Below, one piece after another: positions 2,067 through 24,005 of a DNA stretch of 37,820 nt (its first letter is position 1; every line of letters begins with the position of its first letter). A program made the translations under genes and the position numbers. The notes beneath the pieces were generated by a model. That model did not search any database. It saw only the letters and a list, made by a program, of their open reading frames with translations, and had not been told where the DNA came from. Source of the stretch: an uncultured Chloroflexaceae bacterium (GTDB lineage: Bacteria; Chloroflexota; Chloroflexia; Chloroflexales; Chloroflexaceae); NCBI GenBank assembly GCA_964626155.1, contig CAZVEN010000021.1, forward strand, positions 15,825 to 53,644, read 5' to 3'.

Positions 2067-2690
2067 ATGCATATCATACTTATTCGCCATGGCATAACGG
2101 AATGGAATGCACAACGACGCTATCAAGGGCATGCCGATATGCCGCTGAATGCCTTGGGGCGAGAACAAGCCCGGCTTGCCGGTGAACGGCTACGCGCAAT
2201 GCAGGGGCTACACATACACGCTATGTACTCCAGCGACACCGCACGGGCTTGGCAAACGGCGCAGATCATCGGCGAGCATGTTGGCATACAGCCACAACCC
2301 ATGCTCGACCTGCGCGAAATAGACGTTGGGCAATGGAGTGGGCTTACAGTTGAGGAGCGCAACCGCCTTTTTCCCGACAGTGTGCGCGACTGCGAACGTG
2401 ACCCCATCAACACGGTGCTACCGGGTGGCGAGTCGCGGGTGCAGTTGCAACAACGTGCGCTACGGGCATTCAACCAGATTATTGAGGCGCATCAGCCAGA
2501 GGAAACAGTACTAGCCGTTTCGCATGCCGGGACTATGCGTACTATTCTGTGCCACTACCTTGGCATGGATTTAGCCTACAATGAGCGGTTGAAGATAAAC
2601 CATTGTTCATTGACCGAGTTGCGCTACAAAAGAGATAATTGGCGTGTGCATCGTGTAAATGATGCTGCGCATATAGAAGCATTGCATTAG
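2067..2690 (+). CDS. histidine phosphatase family protein (phosphoglycerate mutase-like)
   Basis: N-terminal LIRHGITEWN (RHG catalytic motif), 207 aa, a length typical of the family. Confidence 0.85.
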   Translation: MHIILIRHGITEWNAQRRYQGHADMPLNALGREQARLAGERLRAMQGLHIHAMYSSDTARAWQTAQIIGEHVGIQPQPMLDLREIDVGQWSGLTVEERNRLFPDSVRDCERDPINTVLPGGESRVQLQQRALRAFNQIIEAHQPEETVLAVSHAGTMRTILCHYLGMDLAYNERLKINHCSLTELRYKRDNWRVHRVNDAAHIEALH

Positions 2691-2744
2691 GGTTGGTTAG
2701 TTCATTCTCACAAAATGCTAACAAGACAATCCACCCGCTTAAAG

Positions 2745-2790
2745 AACTTCGTGTTTCCTTTGTGTTCTTTGTGTTCTTTGTGGTTCAATG
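2745..2790. repeat. octamer/nonamer-repeat element copy (TGTTCTTTG x3)
   Basis: GTGTTTCCTTTGTGTTCTTTGTGTTCTTTGTGGTTC. It is the reverse-orientation relative of the 22693-22760 copy (CACAGAGAACACAGAG). Confidence 0.6.
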
Positions 2791-2805
2791 TAGTATCTTG
2801 AGATA

Positions 2806-4590
2806 TTGCTTATGAAAAGAGACAAAGGGGTTTCATATAGAGCCGTCAGCTTGATGTTCTGGCTTGCATCTATGCTATTCTTCACACCTTTGGCAACCGC
2901 ACAAGCACAGCAGCAACAGAAAGAGTTCGCCAAAGATGTGCTGCTTGAGCGGCGCGACGGCGACATCACCATTTTGCCCAATGGAGATGTGCAGGTTGTG
3001 GAAACATGGGAAGTGTATTTTATTGGTGGCGTGTTTACCTATGCCTTTCGTGAACTGCCGCATGAGTGTCTCACTGCCACATCGGGGTGGGAAGTGTATG
3101 AAGGAAAACAGGCATATCAGCCGGCTCCCGCGACTGATGCACAACCCGGCACGCCCGGTACATTTCACATACAGACGACTGAAGCTTCGACCAAGGTGAC
3201 ATGGTTTTTCCCTCCAACTACTGATGATACGCGCATGTTTACGCTGAAATATGTCGTGCATGGTTCCCTTGCCATCTATGAGCAGGTAGACCGCCTACGC
3301 TGGCAGTTTATTGAGTGGGAACGTCTCTACCCTATCAATACCGCGCATGTTGTTGTTCATTTGCCAGCATCGTTCGATAGGGATGAGATAACGGTTGCTA
3401 CCTATCGGTATGGGCGTAAAGCCGGTGGAGCAGAGGTTGTTGATGGGCAAACCGTAGCGTTTACCGGGGAAGCATTTTTGCCGGGCGCTCTCTGGGATAT
3501 TGAGGTACAGTTTCCGCATGGTGTTGTAGACGCCGAGCCACAGGCATGGCAGCTACGCCAAGACGCGGAGGAGCAAAAGCGTGCAGCATATGAGGCAGCG
3601 CTTGAAGCGCAACGGCGTTTTTACAATCGCATTGCCGTATCGGTCGCGCTTGCCATATTCCTTGGTGGCTCTGTTGGCATTGCGCTGTTGTGGCATCGGT
3701 ATGTGCGCACTACTGCCCCAGAGCAAGCTCAAGCTTCTGCCTATGTCACCAACCCACCCAAAGACCTGCCACCCAGTATGGCCGGCGTATTGCTCGATGG
3801 CAAAGTAGAAAACCGGCATATTATAGCAACCATGGTAGATTTAGCTCATCGTGGGTTCTTGCGTATTGTAGAGCACAGCAACGATGTACAACACACATTC
3901 ACCTTTGAACGGCTAGAGCAAGATACCAGTCGCCTGCGCACATATGAAAAAAATATCCTGCATGCGCTCTTTGGCACTAGCCAGCAGCGTGACCTTGCGG
4001 CGTTGAGCAAAACCTTTTTTAGCACCATCCCATCACTCAAGCAAGATATGTACAATGAGCTTATACAGCAAGGCTACCTAACAGAGGACCCGGAACACAT
4101 CCGCAATGGCTACACACGCATTGGTATTATAACCATTATCTTGGGTCTCATGAGCAGCGTCGGCGGAGCCAACGTTGATGTATCGCACGCGGCACCATTA
4201 GCCATTACCATTGCACTTGCTATTCTGGCAGTGGGTGTGGGTATTGTCGCTATAAGCCGTATCTTGCAGCAGAAAACAATACAAGGTGACATGACTATTA
4301 CACAGATACGCCGGTTCAAGCGCTATCTCGTCTCCATTGAGCAGTATACGCAGGTTCAAGATGCAGTAGACCAGTTTGACCCCTATTTGCCATATGCCAT
4401 TGCGTTTGGCATTCAGCAGCAATGGGGCGAAACATTTGCGGCTGTCCATACACCGGCCCCCACGTGGTATACGTCGGATTCAGCACCCGCCGGGGCCGAA
4501 CTCGATGCCGTCATCAGAGGTTTTTTTGACATGGTCCGTCAAACGTCGTTGGTCTTCAAGGGGCGATTTGTGAGTTCAGATAGTGTCTAG
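2806..4590 (+). CDS. DUF2207 domain-containing membrane protein
   Basis: 594 aa. It has an N-terminal signal/TM, then an extracytoplasmic domain with ILPNGDVQVVETWEVYF.GG.FTYAFRELP (DUF2207-like), a TM near residue 290, and 2-3 TMs near residue 450 with a YLPYAIAFG C-terminal segment. Confidence 0.7.
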   Translation: MLMKRDKGVSYRAVSLMFWLASMLFFTPLATAQAQQQQKEFAKDVLLERRDGDITILPNGDVQVVETWEVYFIGGVFTYAFRELPHECLTATSGWEVYEGKQAYQPAPATDAQPGTPGTFHIQTTEASTKVTWFFPPTTDDTRMFTLKYVVHGSLAIYEQVDRLRWQFIEWERLYPINTAHVVVHLPASFDRDEITVATYRYGRKAGGAEVVDGQTVAFTGEAFLPGALWDIEVQFPHGVVDAEPQAWQLRQDAEEQKRAAYEAALEAQRRFYNRIAVSVALAIFLGGSVGIALLWHRYVRTTAPEQAQASAYVTNPPKDLPPSMAGVLLDGKVENRHIIATMVDLAHRGFLRIVEHSNDVQHTFTFERLEQDTSRLRTYEKNILHALFGTSQQRDLAALSKTFFSTIPSLKQDMYNELIQQGYLTEDPEHIRNGYTRIGIITIILGLMSSVGGANVDVSHAAPLAITIALAILAVGVGIVAISRILQQKTIQGDMTITQIRRFKRYLVSIEQYTQVQDAVDQFDPYLPYAIAFGIQQQWGETFAAVHTPAPTWYTSDSAPAGAELDAVIRGFFDMVRQTSLVFKGRFVSSDSV

Positions 4591-4598
4591 GGCGTAGG

Positions 4599-6248
4599 AT
4601 GCACACGTTATTGGTGCAAGGGCAACCTATTACAGATGCATGTGTGACAGAGTGGCAGGAAGTTGCATTTTCTTGTGTGCCACCGCACAATTGCACACTG
4701 GCGTTGACGATAGGCGATACATTGCACCCTGTGCTGCTGCAACCATTTTTGCTGCCGGGCGACCCGGCATGGCGCTGGCGCTGGAATCCGCAGAATACTG
4801 TCGGACATGTTGCCTTTACTTTGGCTATAACCGGGCCAGATGGGCACGTTGACTATGAATATGGGCATCTGCATGTTGTGCCACGCAAGATAGACCAAGA
4901 GCAGTATCAGGCTTTGCTTGATGATTTGCAACGGTTCATACGCTTGCTTGTCTTTTCTTTGCCGGGGAGTATGGTAGGGACACGGGAGAGTGATGCACCA
5001 GAAGAAATACCAACTGAATGCAGCATTATAGAGATGTATTATCGCTTCTTGCGAGAGCGTTTGACAACGCTTGAACAGGCAGTACGGCACATTGCTCAAC
5101 ATCCACATACCCAAACCTGTGTAGGCACGAAACGGGAACCGGTGGGACACGCACATGATTTTTCGCAGGTTGGCGAAGATGTTGCGCGTGGGCAGCCGGT
5201 GTACCCATTTCCAATGCATGCGGTACCGCTGTTTCGACAAGCTCAACAACCGCGCAACAACATACACCATCTGCCAGAGGAAGTTCCCCAGAGTGCTATG
5301 CTAGTAGATGTGGATACGTATGAAAACCGGCTGCTCAAGTGGGTGTTGCATGAGCTATGGCACCGCGCACAGGCAATTGCTACGCTGACGTCTCATGAAA
5401 AAGCGTTTTTACCACAGGTGACACAAGGGTACACAGAGGAAATACACCATAGTGTGCAACGGTTGGCGCAGGTGCGTTCGCTGCCGTTGTTGGAAGGGGT
5501 CAAGACGCTTTCTGTTTTCCATGGGGCAACGTACACTATTCGACATAACCCTTCCTATCGTCAAATCTACCGCTTATGGCAAGAGTTACACACTCTGCCC
5601 GCGCTCGATGTTGAGAGCGATATATTCCATGTGCCAGTGCATGAACTACCACAGTTGTATGAAGTGTGGTGTGTGGTGCAGGTGATGGCGGCTTTGCTGG
5701 AGCAACCGGGCGTTCGTGTGCGTACACAGCGTTTTATCGCACAGAAGGATGGGAGTCGCGGGCATACGTTTGGTCTTGTTGAGGATGTTCCATTGCTTAT
5801 GCTCAATTGGCACGATGTGATTATTTGTTTGCGCTATCAGCCACGCTATTACCCGTTGCACAGTGCGCACATTGCACAGTGTGAGGAGCATACAGAGACA
5901 ATAGGCTCTCTCGATTGTCACATGCACAAGCCAGATATTGCTATAGAGATGATGCATCCTGCACAATTGCCGTCTGTGTTGCTGTTTGATGCCAAATATC
6001 GCCTGACGGCCAGTGGGGGCGTGCCAGAAGATGCGCTGGCCGATATGTATACCTACCTTGGGAGTATTGGAACATATCCCGATAAACGTGTTGTGCAACA
6101 AGCTGCGGTGCTCTATCCGGGCGAGAGGGTTGCAGAGCGCTATGCAAGTGGCGTGGGTGTGTTGGGGCTTGTGCCGGGCTGCCGGGCTAGGCTGCGCGAG
6201 TGGGTGGCATTGTGGCTACTAAGAAATGGTGCGAAAGGCGTAGGATAG
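4599..6248 (+). CDS. PD-(D/E)XK nuclease-like protein (McrC/DUF2357-like) of unknown function
   Basis: 549-aa ORF that starts 8 bp after the DUF2207 stop, so the two are probably translationally coupled. The C-terminal region has HKPDIAIEM...LLFDAKYR (D...E.K nuclease core) preceded by LPQLYEVWCVVQVMAAL, which resembles DUF2357/McrC-type nucleases. The last ~30 nt overlap the GGCTTCTAGC repeat element. Confidence 0.55.
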   Translation: MHTLLVQGQPITDACVTEWQEVAFSCVPPHNCTLALTIGDTLHPVLLQPFLLPGDPAWRWRWNPQNTVGHVAFTLAITGPDGHVDYEYGHLHVVPRKIDQEQYQALLDDLQRFIRLLVFSLPGSMVGTRESDAPEEIPTECSIIEMYYRFLRERLTTLEQAVRHIAQHPHTQTCVGTKREPVGHAHDFSQVGEDVARGQPVYPFPMHAVPLFRQAQQPRNNIHHLPEEVPQSAMLVDVDTYENRLLKWVLHELWHRAQAIATLTSHEKAFLPQVTQGYTEEIHHSVQRLAQVRSLPLLEGVKTLSVFHGATYTIRHNPSYRQIYRLWQELHTLPALDVESDIFHVPVHELPQLYEVWCVVQVMAALLEQPGVRVRTQRFIAQKDGSRGHTFGLVEDVPLLMLNWHDVIICLRYQPRYYPLHSAHIAQCEEHTETIGSLDCHMHKPDIAIEMMHPAQLPSVLLFDAKYRLTASGGVPEDALADMYTYLGSIGTYPDKRVVQQAAVLYPGERVAERYASGVGVLGLVPGCRARLREWVALWLLRNGAKGVG

Positions 6249-16362: not shown

Positions 16363-16444
16363 CACTCAATCGCCCCATCGCCCCATCGCTCAATCGCTCA
16401 ATCCCTGACCCCTGACCCCTGACCCCTGACCCCTGACCCCTGTC
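16363..16444. repeat. compound microsatellite: 8-mers (CTCAATCG/CCCCATCG x5), then 7-mer CCCTGAC x5 (+1 degenerate) overlapping the last 18 codons of the NACHT gene
   Basis: Read directly from the sequence. The 7-mer array (16403-16444) encodes ...GVRGQGSGVRGQG on the minus strand. Confidence 0.9.
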
Positions 16445-19400
16445 ACCGCTTGCACAACCGCCCTCACCTGCGCCGGGTACGCCTGTGCCAGCAACTCACA
16501 CATAGCGTAGGCAGACTCGACGGAGTAAGCACAGGGGATGAGCAACTGCTTGAAATGGGACAAATCGCCCGCCTCTAGCAACTCCTCAGCATCAATCGTC
16601 TGTACGGTTTGGAGTGCGGCAGGAAAATCGCCTGCACGTGCTTGGGCTGTGACGATAGCTGACAACGCTTTCACACGTCTTCGCCCATGGTCAATCGTCT
16701 GTGCGGTGTGGAGCGCGGCAGTGGAATAGCCTACACGTGCTTGGGCTGTGACGATAGCTGCCAGTTCCTTCGCACGGTCCCAATCATCATCAATCATCTG
16801 GGCGGTGTGGAGTGCGGCAGAAAAATCGCTTGCCTGTGCTTGGGCTGTGGCGATAGCTTCCAGTACCTTAGCACGCTTTTCCGCATCGTCAATTGTCTGC
16901 GCGGTGTCGAACGCGGCAGTACACGTTTGACGAGCATCATCGTGTAAACCGGCCTGTGCTTGTGCTGTGGCGATGTCTGCCAGTGCCTTAGCACGCTTTT
17001 CCGCATCGTCAATTGTCTGCGCGGTGTCGAACGCGGCAGTACACGTTTGACGAGCATCATCGTGTAAACCGGCCTGTGCTTGTGCTGTGGCGATGTCTGC
17101 CAGTTCCTTAGCACGCTCTTCCGCATCGTCAATCGTCTGTGCTATCTGGAGTGCAACCGCAAACACATGGCGCTCAGCCAGCTTGTCACACAAGTCTGCA
17201 CGTTTGTAATCATCCAGCAATTGTTGTTGCAAGCTGACAAGCATGTGCTCATCAATGCCAGACACAACCGGTAACAACATAACCGCATATTTTGCTTGCT
17301 CAACATCTAGTCGTGGCAACCGCTCCGCCAGCACACGCTCCAGCCTTTTGCGTGCATCGGATTCATGTCCATTGTCATGCAATTCCCATGCCAGCAGTAG
17401 ATACCACAACACTCGCTGCTTGGCATCAACCAAGTCTGCCAATGCCCATGCTCGTTCTATATTGCCTTCGCGTAATGCGTCGAGTGGGCTTTCTTGGGCA
17501 ATATCGTGTGCTTGGTATACGTGTAGCAACAGCATTCGTGCCATAGTGCCGGCGTCGTCACAGGTTGCGGCCCCCTCTAGCGCTACTTGTATAGTGCGTA
17601 GCGGTAGGTTTGGCTCGGTGGGGAAAGCAGTTGCTTGCTCCTGCTGGAAAATCTGATTTTCTGCAAGGTCATAGAGCGTTTGCCAATGCTGTGCTTGCTG
17701 TAGATGTTGGGCATAGTGGCGCAAGGCGTAGCGGCTATGGTGTTCTGTCCAGCGAAGGCAGTAATTTATCAATTCCTCCAGAAAGAGAACAGTTTTCCCT
17801 TTCAATTTGCGTTTTGTTAAATAGTTTTGAAAGCGCGGGTGACACAACGCATAACTACTATGACCTAGTTGTCCTCGGTGTTCTATGACAAAACGGCGCA
17901 CAGGGTCCAGTATTTGATCAAAAAACCATTCCATGTTTGGGTAGAGACGAAAAAGGTCCTCAGATGGCAGTGGACCAAGAGCTACCATCAAAATGCCTAG
18001 CAAGTTACGTATGTCCTCTTCATTCCGCAATGCTTTGCTCACTTGTTGCCACCAACCATCCAGGTAGCTCTCTAGCCCTGCGGGTTGTTGCGCTATCTGG
18101 GCCTCGCTTATGCGCCCATTGGCAATGTCCTTAACCAGATAGCGTACATAGAAGGGGTCGCCTTGCGAGACGCGCAGGATTTGTTGGAGGAAGTGTTCCC
18201 ACCCTAGCCCCCCCTGCGAGAGGGAATCGGGCATCTCCCTTTCGTCGGGGGGGCCGGGGGATGAATCGGGCATCTCCCCCCCGTGTACGGGGGGGACGGG
18301 GGGGGAATCCGCAATGGCTTTAAGCAACAGTTGCTCGATACCCGCTAGGTCAAGCGTTTCTAGGCGTATAGCCAGCACATCGGTTTGCGGCAACCCCAAG
18401 CGCTGTAGGTCGTCGCGCCCGGCCTGCTCGCGGGCCGAGAAGATGATGAACTTGCCCGTTGGTAGCTCACGCGGTATGTGTAGGTCACGGATAAAGTCAT
18501 CCTCGGCTTCGTCTAGCCCATCAATGACGAGTACGAGTGGGCGACCAGCCTGCACCAATGGCATGCGGAGTAGTTTGGCATACAGCGCTTCCAATTGTCC
18601 CGGTTCGTGTTCGGGTGGCAGGGTTGCTTCTATCTGATAGTAACTCAACATTTGTTCACACATTTGGCGCAGGAAATCTACGCGCCGATGCGTATTGTCG
18701 AGGCGGTTGAGGAAATACCAGCAGTAGCGCTCGTGTTCAGGCGCAACCAGGTTGGCTATCAGTGCCGTTTTGCCATAGCCCGATGGGCCGGTGATGAAGA
18801 CGTAGCCACGTGAACGGCTTGCCAAAAAGTTACGGATTTGTGCTAGTTCGTCATCGCGCCCGGCAAACAGCGTGTGGCGCTCGAAATAGTTGGTTTGCCC
18901 TTCGCGCAACTGGGCCAGTGTGGTGCGGCGTTGCGCGAGGAGCATGCCGGCCTGTATGGTGTAGTCGGGCATAGCAAGTCCACGGGTGAGCTTGCCAATC
19001 TCAGTGTGCAACGAATGCATCATGTCTTCAAGGTGTTGTACGCCTGTTTCTGTACGTGTAGCTATTGCCTCGGTGCGTTGGGTTGTTGTGTCAATAAAGG
19101 TGATGGTTTGCTCCATCCGTGTCAGTGTGTCTTTGAGGTGCTGCATGCTCTCGTGCAGAGGTTGCAAAGCTGTGTCTAGGGCGTCGTCGCCCGTGGGGTC
19201 ACGCTGGTTGGCAGGCTGAGTTTGCAATGTTTCTGCCCACTCCTGAAGCCATAGCACAACCTCGCGGATGTCATCAGTCGTTTGGCTTATCTGGCTTATC
19301 TGCACAGTGGTTTTGGCAAGGCTTTGCTGCCATAGCAATTGATATGCCCGCCATGCGCGTGTGCCTTGCTCGCTTGGGTCTTTCAACTCCTCCCGGAAGC

Positions 19401-20019
19401 GCAACATCCACTCATCGTAGAGATACTGGGCAATATGCTCAACTATACCAAGGGGTTGGTTGGTAAAAAAGTCGTCACGCAACTTTTGCACAAAGAGCGT
19501 ATTGGCTGTCGTTTGGGCTTCGTCAATGTGGTTGGCGTTCATTACCTGGGGGAGAATATGCACACAAGCGTGAATCTGGTCATTGAGATGTTCAAGCGTA
19601 ATGAGTTCGTCAGCGGTGCTTTGTGCTTCCTCATGCAGGCGACGCAATTGGTTGTGCAAGCGCGAACGTTGATCGGGGCGGCGCAAGTGGTTTAGCCATT
19701 GAGGTTGTGCCTCGCTCATGTTGAGCACATGGGCTATCGCTTCTGGGGTCGTAGCCCGTTCCAACAAGGTATGCCAATCGCGGTAGATTTGCTTTGCTGC
19801 TGCATTGAAGGCACGTGCGAGTGCTTTGGCAATATCGTGGTTGAGTGCGCCACGCTCGCTGAACCAGCCGGCCCGCCAACGCTGATAGCTCTGCTCGGCA
19901 AGGCTAGAAGCCCAATTCGTACCTACCCCACCAATAGATGCAAGCAGGTATTCAGATGCGCTTTCGGCTGTTTTCAGCCCAACAGTAGCAAGTGCGCCTG
20001 TGAGTATAATTTCGAGCAT
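16390..20019 (-). CDS. NACHT/STAND-family P-loop NTPase (bacterial NLR-like) with uncharacterized ~370-aa helical N-terminal region and C-terminal 40-aa helical repeat array
   Basis: 1209 aa. Walker A GPSGYGKT, Walker B LVLVIDGLDEA, then a helical/WH region, then at least 5 repeats of the form AQTIDDAEKRAKALADIATAQAQAGLHDDARQTCTAAFDT. No recognisable enzymatic motif in residues 1-370. Confidence 0.85.
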   Translation of the reverse strand: MLEIILTGALATVGLKTAESASEYLLASIGGVGTNWASSLAEQSYQRWRAGWFSERGALNHDIAKALARAFNAAAKQIYRDWHTLLERATTPEAIAHVLNMSEAQPQWLNHLRRPDQRSRLHNQLRRLHEEAQSTADELITLEHLNDQIHACVHILPQVMNANHIDEAQTTANTLFVQKLRDDFFTNQPLGIVEHIAQYLYDEWMLRFREELKDPSEQGTRAWRAYQLLWQQSLAKTTVQISQISQTTDDIREVVLWLQEWAETLQTQPANQRDPTGDDALDTALQPLHESMQHLKDTLTRMEQTITFIDTTTQRTEAIATRTETGVQHLEDMMHSLHTEIGKLTRGLAMPDYTIQAGMLLAQRRTTLAQLREGQTNYFERHTLFAGRDDELAQIRNFLASRSRGYVFITGPSGYGKTALIANLVAPEHERYCWYFLNRLDNTHRRVDFLRQMCEQMLSYYQIEATLPPEHEPGQLEALYAKLLRMPLVQAGRPLVLVIDGLDEAEDDFIRDLHIPRELPTGKFIIFSAREQAGRDDLQRLGLPQTDVLAIRLETLDLAGIEQLLLKAIADSPPVPPVHGGEMPDSSPGPPDEREMPDSLSQGGLGWEHFLQQILRVSQGDPFYVRYLVKDIANGRISEAQIAQQPAGLESYLDGWWQQVSKALRNEEDIRNLLGILMVALGPLPSEDLFRLYPNMEWFFDQILDPVRRFVIEHRGQLGHSSYALCHPRFQNYLTKRKLKGKTVLFLEELINYCLRWTEHHSRYALRHYAQHLQQAQHWQTLYDLAENQIFQQEQATAFPTEPNLPLRTIQVALEGAATCDDAGTMARMLLLHVYQAHDIAQESPLDALREGNIERAWALADLVDAKQRVLWYLLLAWELHDNGHESDARKRLERVLAERLPRLDVEQAKYAVMLLPVVSGIDEHMLVSLQQQLLDDYKRADLCDKLAERHVFAVALQIAQTIDDAEERAKELADIATAQAQAGLHDDARQTCTAAFDTAQTIDDAEKRAKALADIATAQAQAGLHDDARQTCTAAFDTAQTIDDAEKRAKVLEAIATAQAQASDFSAALHTAQMIDDDWDRAKELAAIVTAQARVGYSTAALHTAQTIDHGRRRVKALSAIVTAQARAGDFPAALQTVQTIDAEELLEAGDLSHFKQLLIPCAYSVESAYAMCELLAQAYPAQVRAVVQAVTGVRGQGSGVRGQGLSD
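16861..17100. repeat. two near-identical 120-bp direct repeats inside the NACHT gene (40-aa repeat units)
   Basis: 16861-16980 and 16981-17100 differ at one base. Flanking units are diverged copies. Confidence 0.9.
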
Positions 20020-20616: not shown

Positions 20617-20638
20617 AGGGCGTGCATTTGCACGCCCT
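20617..20638. repeat. GGGCGTGC/GCACGCCC hairpin (same stem as 13164-13183)
   Basis: AGGGCGTGCATTTGCACGCCCT, 53 nt downstream of the SPFH gene stop. Confidence 0.5.
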
Positions 20639-20684
20639 ACCTCTGTGTTCTCTGTGGTAAAAACCTACTCGTGAAAGGTTTATC

Positions 20685-21992
20685 CTACCCTCTATTGTTC
20701 TCCTCGTCGCTGCCCCCCGTACCGGGCGCTGGTTGTTGCGGCGGCTGCCCTTGCTGTTGCTGGGGTGGGTAGCCCTGTTGCTGTGGTGGGTAGCCCTGTT
20801 GTGGCGGGTAGCCCTGTTGTGGTGGGTAGCCCTGTTGTGGCGGGTAGCCCTGCTGTTGAGGTGGGTAGCCCTGCTGTGGCGGGTAGCCCTGCTGTGGCGG
20901 ATAGCCCTGTTGTGGCGGGTAGCCTTGCTGTGGCGGGTAGCCCTGTTGTTGAGGTGGATAACCCTGTTGTTGAGGTGGATAACCTTGTTGTTGTGGCGGA
21001 TAGCCCTGCTGTGGCGGGTAGCCCTGTTGTGGCGGGTAGCCCTGCTGTGGCGGATAACCCTGTTGTGGCGGATAGCCCTGTTGTGGCGGGTAGCCCTGTT
21101 GTGGCGGGTAGCCCTGTTGTGGTGGGTAGCCCTGTTGTGGCTGCATAGACTGATTCATCATATTGCCCATACCCATGCCCATAGCCAACCCCATGCCCGC
21201 TTCCATAGGCCCGCCAGCACCACCGGGGTTGGCGGCGGCCACACCCATAGCCTCAGCAGCCTTATAGCGCATATAGTCCGATTGTGTTGCCGCCATCATC
21301 GTTTGCGCCTCTTGGGCCTTCTGCACACGTTCCCACGTTGCTTCGTCTACCGATATTTCCTCTACATAAAAGTCATTTATCTTCAGCCCAATTTCCTCAA
21401 ACAAGCTAGATAGCTTCACCCGCGAAGCCGCATTCAGCTCCTCCGTCAGAGTTTGCAAGTCAATAACCGACGTTTTCTGAGACGTGACAAGCTTGCGCAT
21501 AATAGAAACAATCCTACCGCGCATATACTTCGTCAAATCTCTCGTACTGTAAACCCCTTGCTGTCCCACAATCTCATTAACAAATGAAGCCGGGTCGGCT
21601 ACCTCGCAAGAATAGCCCCCAAAAGCACTCAGTTGTGTCATACCGATAAAAGGTTCTGGGTCTTTGTACATCACCTTGCCCATACCCCACTTACCTTCAA
21701 ATCGTTTTTCCGTATTGACAAACACAACTTCAGCTTGAAACGGCGTCTTGCCACCCGTTACCCACCCAACAATCCCGGCCAGTATGGGAATATTGGCAGT
21801 GCTGATAGTGTGTCGGCCCGGGCCGAGCACATCGCGTGCTTTGCCTTCATAGAAAAAGAGCGCTACCTGCCCCTCACGGACAATAACTTGAGACCCAATG
21901 CGAAAATCGCCGGGCCCATATTCCGGCTCACGGTGAACAATCTCTTCGCCGGAAGAGTCAATAAATTCAACAACATCAATAAATCGTGGCAT
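20685..21992 (-). CDS. SPFH/band-7 domain protein (COG4260-like) with C-terminal 20x QQGYPP low-complexity tail
   Basis: N-terminal [51 protein letters not shown] resembles COG4260 SPFH proteins. Residues ~286-410 are (Q)QQGYPP repeats; there is no C-terminal Zn ribbon. Confidence 0.8.
20757..21147. repeat. 18-bp (occasionally 21-bp) tandem repeat array, ~20 units, encoding QQGYPP
   Basis: GGTGGGTAGCCCTGTTGT variants repeat head to tail. The reverse-strand ORFs 20733-21413 and 20765-21148 are artifacts of this array. Confidence 0.9.
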
Positions 21993-22061
21993 GTACCTTC
22001 CCTTTCATCTTTCATGAGTGCGTTGGGTAAGCTTCTAGCCTACCCACACATAGTGCTTACT

Positions 22062-22556
22062 TTATGCTTGCTTGCCATAGTAGACAAGTGCTTGGCGTTC
22101 ATCAAATTGCTCGTTTAGTCCATCCACGAGCCTTTGCAGTGATGCGATAGCTTCAGCAAAACTATCAGTGCCGAGGTTTTTTTCAGCAAATGCTATTTGT
22201 TCCTGCAATATCGGCACACTGTCTGCTAATTTGGCATCAAATTCATAGATACGGTCCAGGTCGGCTTCGGCTATTTTCACCTCGCTAAACATAGGCGAAT
22301 AGCCTTGCACGGCGCTTTGTAGCCGTGATATAAACCGGTTGAGGGTGCGGTTCACCTCTTCCAATGCAGAGACATAGTGCAGTCCGCCACTATCCATAGC
22401 TTGTTGGGAGAGGCGAGTGATGTTTTTCTGTTCGGCTTCATACTGCTGGCTCAAATGCCTACGCAACACCTCATCGGCATCACGGCGTTTTTCTTTCGAT
22501 GAGTAGCCTTCGTAGCCTGGAATGATACCCATGAGTTTGTTCAGTATATTTCCCAT
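22062..22556 (-). CDS. hypothetical coiled-coil protein (164 aa), probably co-transcribed with the SPFH gene
   Basis: The internal start MGNILNK has a GGAGAC RBS; the ORF track N-extension is rejected. 70-bp gap to the SPFH start on the same strand. Confidence 0.55.
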   Translation of the reverse strand: MGNILNKLMGIIPGYEGYSSKEKRRDADEVLRRHLSQQYEAEQKNITRLSQQAMDSGGLHYVSALEEVNRTLNRFISRLQSAVQGYSPMFSEVKIAEADLDRIYEFDAKLADSVPILQEQIAFAEKNLGTDSFAEAIASLQRLVDGLNEQFDERQALVYYGKQA

Positions 22557-22692
22557 ATGTAAGGGTCTCCTTCTACCAATGACGAATAACACGATAGAGA
22601 GCATAGCACGTCATCAAATACTACAATCATTGTACCTTATTTGCCGTGAAAAACAAAGGGGGGGGATGGAAGTGTTCGTAAACAAGTTTTTA

Positions 22693-22760
22693 CCACAGAG
22701 AACACAGAGAACACAGAGAGTGCTTTTCTCTTCGTGTTCTTTGTGCCTCTGTGGTGCTCT
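22693..22760. repeat. inverted heptamer-repeat element CCACAGAGAACACAGAGAACACAGAGAG / CTCTTCGTGTTCTTTGTGCCTCTGTGG
   Basis: The two arms can pair. Related to 2745-2790 and 20655-20668. Confidence 0.6.
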
Positions 22761-22886: not shown

Positions 22887-24005
22887 CTACCCCTCTGCCA
22901 AGGCAGAAATATCAGCAAGAGAAAGACCGGTGATGTCGGCAATGAGCGATGGCTCAAAGCCCTTAGCTTGTAAGTTGCGCACAGTGTTGCGCTGTGTTTC
23001 GCGTGTACGTTCGCGTTCCAAGCGAGCAAGCTCTTCGGCTTCGCGTGTACGTTCGCGTTCCAAGCGAGCAAGCTCTTCGGCTTCGCGTGCGCGTTCATCG
23101 GCTTCGCGTGCGCGTTCGTCGGCTTCATCCAAGCGCTGAACAACATACTCTGCGCGTTCTTCTGCTATGCGGCGAGCTTGCACCATTTCTGTATAATCTA
23201 CAACCTTGTGTCCTTGCTCATGAAACCAGCATATATCATCTTTGCCCAGACCTACATACATTTTAGCGGCTTCAATCCACACACGCCCGTGTGTATCAGG
23301 TTGGCACAAATCATAGAAACCGAGCCTATTCAAGCAATAGACGTATAGCTTAGGAAGGGTACCTTCAGGTGCATCATCATCGGGAAGGTCTAAGACGATA
23401 TAGACAGCAATGCCCGCCTCTGCATAGATTTCCCATTTTGAGCGTAACCCAGGATGTTCCCGTTTTTTGTATTCAAAGAGGCGTAGCTCTTTTTCTGTCA
23501 GCAAAGAAGGGTCCATATCTAAACAGCGTGTTCCGGGCGAGGTAATTTCCAAAACCACTTCTACTTTAGCGCCTTCGTCTTTGACATAAAACGTGCTCCA
23601 GTTGTAATTTTTTGGTCTTTTGATGCCAGAGACCAGAGCAGCATCGGGTGCAACTGGACGTAGACCGGGTAAACCCAAATCTATACGCATTTCTTTTAAG
23701 ACCACCATAGATGGTTTATGTTGGCTAGAGGCCCTCATAGCATTGTACGAATAGGTTTGAGAAATGGTATGGCGATTACGAACAGACACCTCATCCCCCT
23801 CCTCTGGGAACAATACATCCAAGATAGTCAATGGGCGATATTCGCTTATTTCGGTGCCATCGGGAAGCACCCGGGTAGAATAACGCCAGCCAAATTCTTC
23901 TTCCTCTGCTCTTTCTGTTGTTGTTGTTGGTATGAAGGTTCTTTTTTTGGTAAACGGCTTTGTATATTCTAGCACGTCGGTTGTTGTAGGATAGACAAAA
24001 GACAT
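22887..24005 (-). CDS. Uma2 family endonuclease with extended N-terminus and ER-rich coiled-coil C-terminal tail
   Basis: RPVAPDAALVSG...VVLEITSPGTR..D...K...YAEAGIAVYIVLD matches the Uma2 core. The tail carries a perfect 48-bp tandem duplication (EELARLERERTREA x2) and ends in LIADITGLSLADISALAEG. AAGGAGG RBS. Confidence 0.75.
   Translation of the reverse strand: MSFVYPTTTDVLEYTKPFTKKRTFIPTTTTERAEEEEFGWRYSTRVLPDGTEISEYRPLTILDVLFPEEGDEVSVRNRHTISQTYSYNAMRASSQHKPSMVVLKEMRIDLGLPGLRPVAPDAALVSGIKRPKNYNWSTFYVKDEGAKVEVVLEITSPGTRCLDMDPSLLTEKELRLFEYKKREHPGLRSKWEIYAEAGIAVYIVLDLPDDDAPEGTLPKLYVYCLNRLGFYDLCQPDTHGRVWIEAAKMYVGLGKDDICWFHEQGHKVVDYTEMVQARRIAEERAEYVVQRLDEADERAREADERAREAEELARLERERTREAEELARLERERTRETQRNTVRNLQAKGFEPSLIADITGLSLADISALAEG

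Follow-up and report, generated by a model that had tools for sequence, protein, structure and literature searches.

The locus examined here raises the question of what becomes of a bacterial SPFH scaffold protein when the small module that ends its homologues is missing and the chain before it has grown into a perfectly periodic repeat. It lies in a stretch of 37,820 nucleotides (nt), hereafter the window, of contig CAZVEN010000021.1 from an uncultured Chloroflexaceae bacterium (assembly GCA_964626155.1). The locus consists of a gene for a 435-amino acid (aa) SPFH protein whose C-terminal part holds 20 perfect QQGYPP units, and of a gene for a 164-aa partner that lies upstream on the same strand, separated by a gap of 70 base pairs (bp). 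Our preferred reading, which we hold as a whole with moderate confidence, is that the pair represents a trimmed Psp-type membrane-maintenance module of Chloroflexota, in which the repeat tail would be a selected tether or brush. What the analysis shows directly is the fold and the identity of the domains, the conservation of the gene pair, its connection with PspA, the lack of the end module and the purely synonymous variation within the repeat. The features of the pair are as follows.

20685 to 21992, minus strand: SPFH gene, 435 aa, stop codon included (list of open reading frames, ORFs)
21315 to 21938, minus strand: Band_7_1 SPFH domain (aa 19-226), then a long helix (aa 217-254) (Pfam, AlphaFold, Foldseek)
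21141 to 21227, minus strand: Gly/Met/Ala-rich patch (aa 256-284), common to all homologues (alignments, tail listing)
20739 to 21137, minus strand: tandem array of 20 perfect (Q)QQGYPP units and one degenerate unit (Tandem Repeats Finder, codon reading)
20688 to 20738, minus strand: non-repeat C-terminal end of 17 residues (comparison with relatives)
22062 to 22556, minus strand: partner gene, 164 aa, starting MGN (ORF list)

The SPFH protein and the origin of its tail

Against the Pfam family PF13421 (Band_7_1), whose cut-off is 24 bits, the 435-aa protein scored 160.1 bits over aa 19-226 (E=7.6e-47), and its start aligns with the MPRIIDVVEF of homologues. An AlphaFold model, for which 36 homologues served as input, gave predicted local distance difference test (pLDDT) values of 85-95 for aa 10-254, comprising an SPFH alpha/beta fold and a long helix, and values of about 45-55 for the coil that extends from aa 255 to the end. 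When the folded part was compared with the Protein Data Bank (PDB) by Foldseek, the top matches were stomatin, prohibitin, HflK/C, flotillin and QmcA, with E-values from 1e-8 to 1e-5. The COG4260-type SPFH identity that the initial annotation had assigned to the N-terminal part is borne out by the Pfam and Foldseek matches. The ORF of 435 codons is intact and retains every residue that is invariant in the family, including G266, G268, G272 and G274 of the Gly/Met/Ala patch, which are invariant in the SPFH alignments. Apart from this patch, inspection by eye revealed no hydrophobic stretch of at least 18 residues. The protein is a YdjI/SamI-like (Band_7_1) SPFH scaffold and probably a soluble one, to judge from this inspection for transmembrane (TM) stretches. 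Its identity and genomic context are much more certain than the role of its tail.

Tandem Repeats Finder reported an 18-bp unit in 20.0 copies at 20767-21141 with 85% matches. Codon-by-codon reading delimits 20 units with an exact QQGYPP core at aa 286-410 (20763-21137), of which 15 are 18 bp long and five, with one more Gln codon, 21 bp. They are followed by a degenerate unit, QQQQGQPP (aa 411-418), and by the 17 non-repeat residues. Both methods agree with the earlier description of an unusual tail of about 125 residues of (Q)QQGYPP, encoded by an 18-bp tandem array. Since the units measure 18 or 21 bp, slippage would alter the length of the tail without switching the reading frame; the gain or loss of a unit does not shift the frame as it does in a phase-variable locus. 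Two plus-strand ORFs over the array (20733..21413 and 20765..21148) are stop-free by-products of the repeat. Searched alone, the tail matched no Pfam family at E<=1, XYPPX (PF02162) included, and a literature search on the hexapeptide returned nothing relevant.

A protein search with the N-terminal 291 aa of the SPFH protein yielded 1663 relatives, the best of them 67% identical and the others about 50%; the named sources are mostly metagenome-assembled genomes (MAGs) of Chloroflexota type. A genome scan with the SPFH alignment, restricted to one genome per species, gave 80 loci, to which all fractions of 80 in this text refer. Nearly all are from Chloroflexota MAGs, and the best (66% identical) comes from an uncultured Chloroflexaceae bacterium. 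Altogether, about 200 homologues follow a common plan that consists of the SPFH domain, the helix, the Gly/Met/Ala patch with its four invariant glycines, a low-complexity linker rich in Gln, Pro and Ala of about 15-75 residues, and a small terminal module. The terminal modules of the 80 loci are distributed as follows.

Two-helix SHOCT-like module (LDxRFxxGEIxxxxY...KW): 35 of 80 loci
Double Zn ribbon: 18 of 80 loci
Excisionase-like helix-turn-helix (HTH): 18 of 80 loci
Other ends (one classical SHOCT, one HTH missed by the pattern, one unique helical end): 3 of 80 loci
Module cut by the contig end: 6 of 80 loci

The Zn ribbon, which had been taken as the normal end of such proteins, is indeed present in the family, but it shares this position with the SHOCT-like and HTH modules. 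PF13421 is the most frequent fusion mate of SHOCT (PMC3581485). The terminal module of the nearest relatives is SHOCT-like, a label that is descriptive and implies no demonstrated membership, the match to Pfam SHOCT being weak (E=0.14).

The relatives with 66-67% identity display the known Band_7_1 and SHOCT architecture (PMC3581485), in which the SPFH domain is followed by a QQGYPP linker and a SHOCT-like end, whereas the window protein ends just where the module should begin. QQGYPP occurs three times, imperfectly, in the linker of L001 (67% identical), once or twice in L008 (66%) and once in L004 (49%), and in each of these closest-clade proteins the linker leads to a SHOCT-like end. The end of the window protein, formed by the degenerate unit and the 17 residues, aligns with the end of the L004 linker, before IQQMIDKLDERF, and its stop lies within a few codons of the position where the SHOCT-like module of the relatives starts. 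No small C-terminal module, whether Zn ribbon, SHOCT-like or HTH, is present in the window SPFH protein. Because the closest-clade linkers already hold one to three QQGYPP motifs, the tail is an expansion, about 3- to 8-fold, of the linker native to the family and not a foreign replacement of a Zn ribbon. The initial annotation, which saw the C-terminus as replaced, needs correction on this point: the repeat occupies the linker position, and it is the module beyond the linker that is lost.

In the closest clade, the gene downstream of the SPFH gene encodes a protein of 374-388 aa that combines a pair of Zn ribbons with a TM segment and a C-terminal domain, a layout described for YdjG. A tblastn search over the window detected neither a remnant of the SHOCT-like module nor a YdjG-like gene, and only 106 bp separate the SPFH stop codon from the next gene (DUF29). 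Comparison with these relatives suggests that the lineage of the window has lost both by deletion.

All 20 units encode the same core, and their 28 codon departures from the unit consensus are all synonymous. Among random substitutions in the six unit codons, the synonymous share would be 22-28%, depending on the assumed transition bias. The variants correspond to at least seven independent mutations, counted as distinct variant states, and the probability that all of these were silent, P(syn)^7, is about 3e-5 to 1e-4. Because all 28 differences are synonymous, the QQGYPP peptide was probably under purifying selection in the past, and for long enough for silent changes to accumulate. The pattern argues against a very recent product of neutral slippage.

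The repeat also occurs outside this clade. When metagenomes were scanned at the DNA level, with a degenerate pattern for (QQGYPP)x4, 111 stretches emerged, the majority of eukaryotic appearance. Five belong to Band_7_1 proteins of two other subfamilies, whose SPFH domains are 26-36% identical to that of the window and which carry 6-8 QQGYPP units in the equivalent position after the GMGMG patch. SPFH proteins with QGYPP-type tails, for which the initial annotation had proposed to search, are thereby found in other DNA. Three of the five end in sub-threshold matches to Pfam SHOCT, one is cut by its contig and one (L113) has no module; the end of a protein with six units scored 22.2 bits against Pfam SHOCT (E=1.2e-4), below the cut-off of 27. 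The L113 protein (2626-4319, minus strand) is a distant Band_7_1 member, 26% identical, with seven units, and since it too lacks a terminal module, this state is not unique to the window. The two subfamilies probably gained their arrays independently.

The neighbourhoods of the five metagenome loci, which are high in GC and noisy for ORF reading, gave no match to the partner family or to PspA. At three loci (L125, L152 and L175), a protein of about 150 aa (...FARGLYHLASVDG...) is encoded upstream of a gene for a YdjI-like Band_7_1 protein with 6-8 QQGYPP units and a sub-threshold Pfam SHOCT match at its end; it is not the four-helix partner. The upstream partner thus appears to differ in other Band_7_1 subfamilies.

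A protein search with the tail alone returned mainly membrane-associated proteins of eukaryotes (XYPPX PF02162, C2, EF-hand, annexin A7-like, LITAF and CD225). It also returned small bacterial membrane proteins with a QGYPP-rich spacer before a SHOCT domain or next to Zn-ribbon, TM2 or RDD domains. In bacterial proteins of this kind (P0324, P0355, P0387 and P0338), the spacer lies between a membrane-proximal element and a small terminal module, but it comprises 3-8 imperfect copies and there is no SPFH domain. The eukaryotic XYPPX/GYPP tails (PF02162; annexin A7-like, C2, penta-EF-hand, LITAF and CD225 proteins) belong to membrane-associated proteins and contain near-identical QQGYPP-type repeats, of which annexin-like eukaryotic ORFs in the metagenomes have as many as 18. 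Their likeness to the window tail is one of composition only, with no shared ancestry and no PF02162 score, although several of the proteins that share the repeat do carry the PF02162 annotation. We know of no bacterial counterpart to ALG-2 and sorcin, the ligands of the eukaryotic XYPPX tails. QQGYPP is a recurrent spacer motif, of which the 20 perfect copies on this SPFH protein are the extreme case.

The partner family and the Psp-type cluster

The partner gene was taken to start at MGN because its homologues begin at the equivalent position, a GGAGA motif lies just upstream, and the alternative ATG at 22604, in frame in the window, is out of frame in a 90%-identical relative (L007). The AlphaFold model (pLDDT 88, predicted TM-score 0.84) has an N-terminal amphipathic helix (aa 2-11) and a predicted four-helix bundle with helices at aa 21-55, 59-81, 97-126 and 133-160. 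The initial annotation had described a coiled-coil protein starting MGN; its start and its helical nature hold, but the model shows a four-helix bundle and no extended coiled coil. Conserved motifs of the partner are IPGYxGYxxKExRRxAD and YGYxG, and R25, D28, R32, D107 and R154 are invariant in the alignment. The ratio of nonsynonymous to synonymous substitution rates (dN/dS) against L007 equals 0.055, and the gene is under strong purifying selection.

No Pfam family matched the partner. Its sole curated match was NCBIfam NF047596 (LIMLP_15305) over aa 12-157, with E=1.1e-10 but only 41.7 bits against an equivalog cut-off of 210; the partner is homologous to this family and no equivalog of it. 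LIMLP_15305 itself is a hypothetical protein of Leptospira, whose gene is listed in a table of the one paper found on it (PMC7567364). While a word-indexed protein search gave two relatives only, an exhaustive HMMER search at E<=1e-3 assembled a family of 1142 cluster representatives, most of them of about 170 aa. Some members have long low-complexity tails and some are fused to DUF4178.

In 63 of the 80 loci, the SPFH gene is preceded by a co-oriented gene of this family, which either adjoins it (47) or is one gene away (16), and five of the 17 loci that lack it have no upstream room on their contigs. The pairing is seen with every type of end module. The conservation of the partner beside SPFH genes, which the initial annotation had singled out for checking, is therefore confirmed. 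Where one gene lies between, the partner has its long form with a fused DUF4178 domain, and in 15 of these 16 loci the gene between the two encodes PspA (Pfam E=2.6e-49). In two more loci PspA immediately precedes the SPFH gene, next to the end of the contig, which brings PspA to 17 of 80. DUF4178 is a known component of PspA operons (PMC11237479). Further upstream, 47 of 80 loci encode a 2TM/Zn-ribbon protein, so called for its two TM segments and its Zn ribbon and about 190 aa long, and 28 of 80 encode a DUF2207 membrane protein, the latter count being limited by the 5-kb flank.

Taken together, these neighbourhoods show a full Chloroflexota cluster composed of DUF2207, the 2TM/Zn-ribbon protein, the four-helix partner, in some cases PspA, and the SPFH protein. 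Examples are found in loci L010-L087, for instance at 6-6047 of L011 and 1919-6050 of L042. The cluster looks like a Psp-type module, one that we did not find described in the literature searched. In an unrelated lineage (L200, 1929-5308), a partner-family protein of 435 aa with a low-complexity tail of 260 residues (P0128) is encoded directly downstream of DUF2207, with no SPFH gene beside it, which suggests that the partner is linked to DUF2207 irrespective of the SPFH protein.

Of this cluster, the window keeps together no more than the partner and SPFH genes, and it contains no PspA, YdjG-like or 2TM/Zn-ribbon gene. The DUF2207 membrane protein gene of the window (2806-4590, plus strand; Pfam E=1.3e-39 and 5.3e-15) lies 16 kb from the pair. 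Because DUF2207 is clustered with the pair in relatives but sits here at this distance and on the opposite strand, this genome has apparently undergone a break-up of the cluster.

The closest known system is that of Bacillus subtilis. Its YdjI/SamI is, like the window protein, a Band_7_1-type SPFH protein with a low-complexity region after the SPFH domain; it has no membrane anchor of its own, as is probable for the window protein too, and it acts with PspA and Zn-ribbon membrane proteins (PMC8581546; bioRxiv 10.64898/2026.02.06.704340; PMC11237479). Relatives of the window protein likewise adjoin PspA or the YdjG-like protein with its TM segment and pair of Zn ribbons, and by this analogy the Chloroflexota cluster resembles the pspA-ydjGHI (= pspA-samGHI) operon in logic. 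In contrast, the window itself has neither pspA nor the membrane partners that characterize this operon, YdjG with Zn-ribbon/TM and YdjH with TPM domains, and its SPFH protein has no terminal Zn finger. The low-complexity region is a perfect 20-unit array of about 133 aa, and the four-helix-bundle neighbour has not been reported for the Bacillus operon. Of the two contexts suggested earlier for SPFH proteins with accessory partners, membrane stress agrees with the PspA genes that lie between the partner and SPFH genes (15 loci) or directly upstream of the latter (two loci), whereas defence finds no support in the PADLOC and PHROGs searches reported below.

These results identify an unannotated four-helix family of about 1100 cluster representatives as a regular partner of such SPFH proteins in Chloroflexota. 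Its links to PspA, DUF4178, DUF2207 and the 2TM/Zn-ribbon protein provide a testable Psp-type gene set outside Firmicutes and Proteobacteria.

Readings of the locus

If the pair is a trimmed Psp-type module, as we think somewhat favoured by the evidence, its working may be pictured by analogy with other SPFH proteins and YdjI/SamI. The SPFH protein would oligomerize to form rings or cages on the cytoplasmic side of the membrane. The partner would be co-transcribed with it and could recruit or regulate it through physical contact, with the predicted N-terminal amphipathic helix as a plausible element of membrane contact. In the course of evolution, the QQGYPP motif of the linker would have been amplified by unit duplication to 20 copies, and a rearrangement would have taken away the SHOCT-like module together with the downstream Zn-ribbon/TM (YdjG-like) gene. 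Once translated, the array would form a proline-stiffened disordered tail of about 130 residues that may act as a long tether or brush, and its regularly spaced Tyr and Gln could provide weak multivalent contacts when many tails gather on an SPFH oligomer. In this way, the tail may partly compensate for the lost end module.

Several observations weigh against such a functional account. The window protein is the sole one without a module among about 200 sequence homologues, the module-less L113 protein having come from the repeat scan. With the end module and the YdjG-like, 2TM/Zn-ribbon and PspA genes all missing from the window, what is left could be a crippled protein. That all codon differences are synonymous speaks of past selection and does not by itself prove that selection continued after the truncation, and the repeat count of the array could be mis-assembled.

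The strongest competitor builds on the first of these points. It holds that a rearrangement cut off the end of a decaying gene and that the leftover linker then grew by slippage as a functionless minisatellite, a possibility that we regard as clearly less probable than the functional account but still one to be reckoned with. It would explain why every complete sequence homologue has a terminal module while the window protein breaks off exactly at the module boundary, and it agrees with the absence of the associated genes and with the repeat elements that flank the cassette. The initial annotation had reasoned that orthologues without the tail at an otherwise identical locus would point to neutral expansion; the orthologue linkers contain the motif in one to three copies only. 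Neutral decay is harder to reconcile with an intact ORF of 435 codons that retains all family-invariant residues, with a low dN/dS of the partner, and with the recurrence of QQGYPP arrays at the equivalent position in two other Band_7_1 subfamilies. Nor would 28 synonymous differences out of 28 be expected in a young neutral array.

A stronger version of the functional account goes beyond tethering. It proposes that the QQGYPP array is a selected, self-associating and multivalent sticker-spacer brush, stiffened by proline and present in many copies on an SPFH ring, that it has arisen repeatedly in Band_7_1 scaffolds and replaces the SHOCT or Zn-ribbon end, and that it is a bacterial counterpart of the XYPPX tails found on membrane-repair proteins of eukaryotes. 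We consider this version doubtful. If true, the tail and the four-helix partner family would define an undescribed membrane-maintenance module associated with Psp.

Rather improbable, too, is that the repeat number, and possibly the truncation as well, is an artefact of assembly; this would be compatible with any of the other explanations. An array of 375 bp built of near-identical 18-bp units is hard to resolve with short reads, and in L007, the 90%-identical relative, the contig extends no more than 68 bp past the partner gene. Against this, the synonymous differences follow each other in non-periodic order and, together with the five 21-bp units, provide anchoring within the array, through which the frame is kept into the non-repeat end.

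The initial annotation attributed a prion-like character to the tail, and a prion-like or amyloid domain could in principle switch the scaffold between soluble and aggregated states. The tail is indeed rich in Gln and Tyr, of low complexity and predicted to be disordered. Its composition, taken over the repeat region of 133 aa, is Q 38%, P 32%, G 16%, Y 15% and N 0%, and the tail contains no Lys or Arg. Proline strongly disfavours cross-beta structure and is, in the literature behind PAPA and PLAAC, the strongest disfavouring residue for prion or amyloid formation; here it occurs twice in every six residues. A rough check of aggregation propensity gave a mean PAPA-type score of -0.24 against a threshold of about +0.05, a value that is no more than indicative, and AlphaFold predicts low-confidence coil. 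Most proteins with the same repeat are membrane-associated proteins with soluble tails. A prion-like role is on this evidence very improbable, and the tail is better described as an extended, disordered chain that is stiffened by proline and in which Tyr and Gln recur at regular intervals.

Just as hard to sustain is the idea that the pair belongs to an anti-phage defence island with the adjacent STAND/NACHT NTPase. The window does contain a 1209-aa STAND NTPase and DUF29, Uma2-like nuclease-fold and McrC-like genes, but PADLOC (E<=1e-3) and PHROGs gave no match for the SPFH protein or the partner, no STAND NTPase stands beside the pair in the loci inspected gene by gene (L001-L006 and L011), and the neighbours kept over the 80 loci are DUF2207, the 2TM/Zn-ribbon protein, PspA and the YdjG-like protein.

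Under the preferred reading of a trimmed Psp-type module, the locus is an unusual variant of a known stress system and no new type of system. Among Band_7_1 SPFH proteins, low-complexity linkers that lead to a SHOCT or Zn-ribbon end are already known; new is the perfect 20-unit QQGYPP array without an end module. SPFH scaffolds are now being solved as membrane cages, whereas the soluble Band_7_1 (YdjI/SamI) branch and its disordered C-termini are poorly understood. Since its linker is perfectly periodic, exceeds the usual length 3-8 times and has no end module behind it, the locus is a natural experiment that separates the role of the linker from that of the module. Current views are not overturned, and the value of the locus lies in this experiment and in the lead it provides. 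More useful than the tail itself may be two by-products, namely the recurrence of the QQGYPP linker in unrelated Band_7_1 subfamilies and the four-helix partner family with its cluster.

Flanking repeats and neighbouring genes

Outside the two genes, the following elements were noted.

20641 to 20664: perfect 24-bp inverted repeat, downstream arm, 21 bp beyond the SPFH stop codon
22686 to 22709: upstream arm of the inverted repeat, which belongs to a CACAGAGAA x2.9 nonamer array (22694-22719) and lies close upstream of the partner promoter region
22621 to 22657, minus strand: promoter-like segment upstream of the partner, with a TACAAT -10-like hexamer at 22629-22634, nearly identical in L007
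20618 to 20637, minus strand: hairpin GGGCGTGC-AAAT-GCACGCCC between the SPFH and DUF29 genes, read directly

The 24-bp inverted repeat brackets the partner and SPFH genes. Its arms are 100% complementary, lie 2021 nt apart and are built on CTCTGTGTT nonamer arrays; the motif has 6 matches against 0.07 expected. A related array, CTTTGTGTT x2.8, is found at 2758-2783, about 25 bp upstream of the DUF2207 gene. The motif was detected neither in the 198 fetched loci nor in the matching intergenic region of L007. It could be a dispersed repeat, a fragment of a miniature inverted-repeat transposable element (MITE), a recombination scar or a shared regulatory site. The downstream arm is located at the junction where synteny with the relatives stops, and we suspect that the nonamer and inverted repeats mark the rearrangement behind the truncation. 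An inversion of the whole cassette was also considered and rejected, since the junction between the Uma2-like gene and the partner, together with the promoter segment, is collinear in L007.

The DNA that flanks the promoter-like segment differs between the window and L007. A scan with consensus promoter and terminator models performed no better than on shuffled sequence and flagged neither this segment nor the hairpin, and Rfam gave no match in the window. The hairpin at 20618-20637 is possibly a terminator, although one without a T-run. In L007 (900-969), the contig ends at a GTTCCCT...AGGGAAC hairpin 68 bp past the partner gene, and the sequence that follows the gene is unrelated to the spacer between the partner and SPFH genes of the window.

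The immediate neighbours of the pair in the window are the DUF29 gene, the STAND/NACHT NTPase gene and the Uma2-like gene. They are not kept beside the pair elsewhere, except that a Uma2-like gene also precedes the partner gene in L007. The 1209-aa NTPase (16390-20019, minus strand) has AAA_16 and NACHT domains and matches STAND_TPR of PADLOC (E=1.7e-14). Tandem repeats of 99 bp and 120 bp (16585-17139) in its gene encode helical units (TAQTIDDAEKRAKALADIATAQAQAGLHDDARQTCTAAFD); a 42-bp repeat occupies 18222-18309, and the heptamer CCCTGAC is repeated 5.7 times (16403-16442) within the 3' end. The Uma2-like protein (PD-(D/E)XK fold, 372 aa; 22887-24005, minus strand) has a weak match to TIGR01784 (Rpn/transposase-like), and tandem repeats of 42 bp and 21 bp at 22998-23126 encode its C-terminal part (ERAREADERAREAEELARLERERTRE...). 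Directly after the DUF2207 gene lies a gene for an McrC-like protein (DUF2357 and PDDEXK_7; 4599-6248, plus strand) with a weak match to PDC-M26B of PADLOC. A further tandem repeat, of 118 bp in 2.2 copies with 97% identity, covers positions 1-254 of the window.

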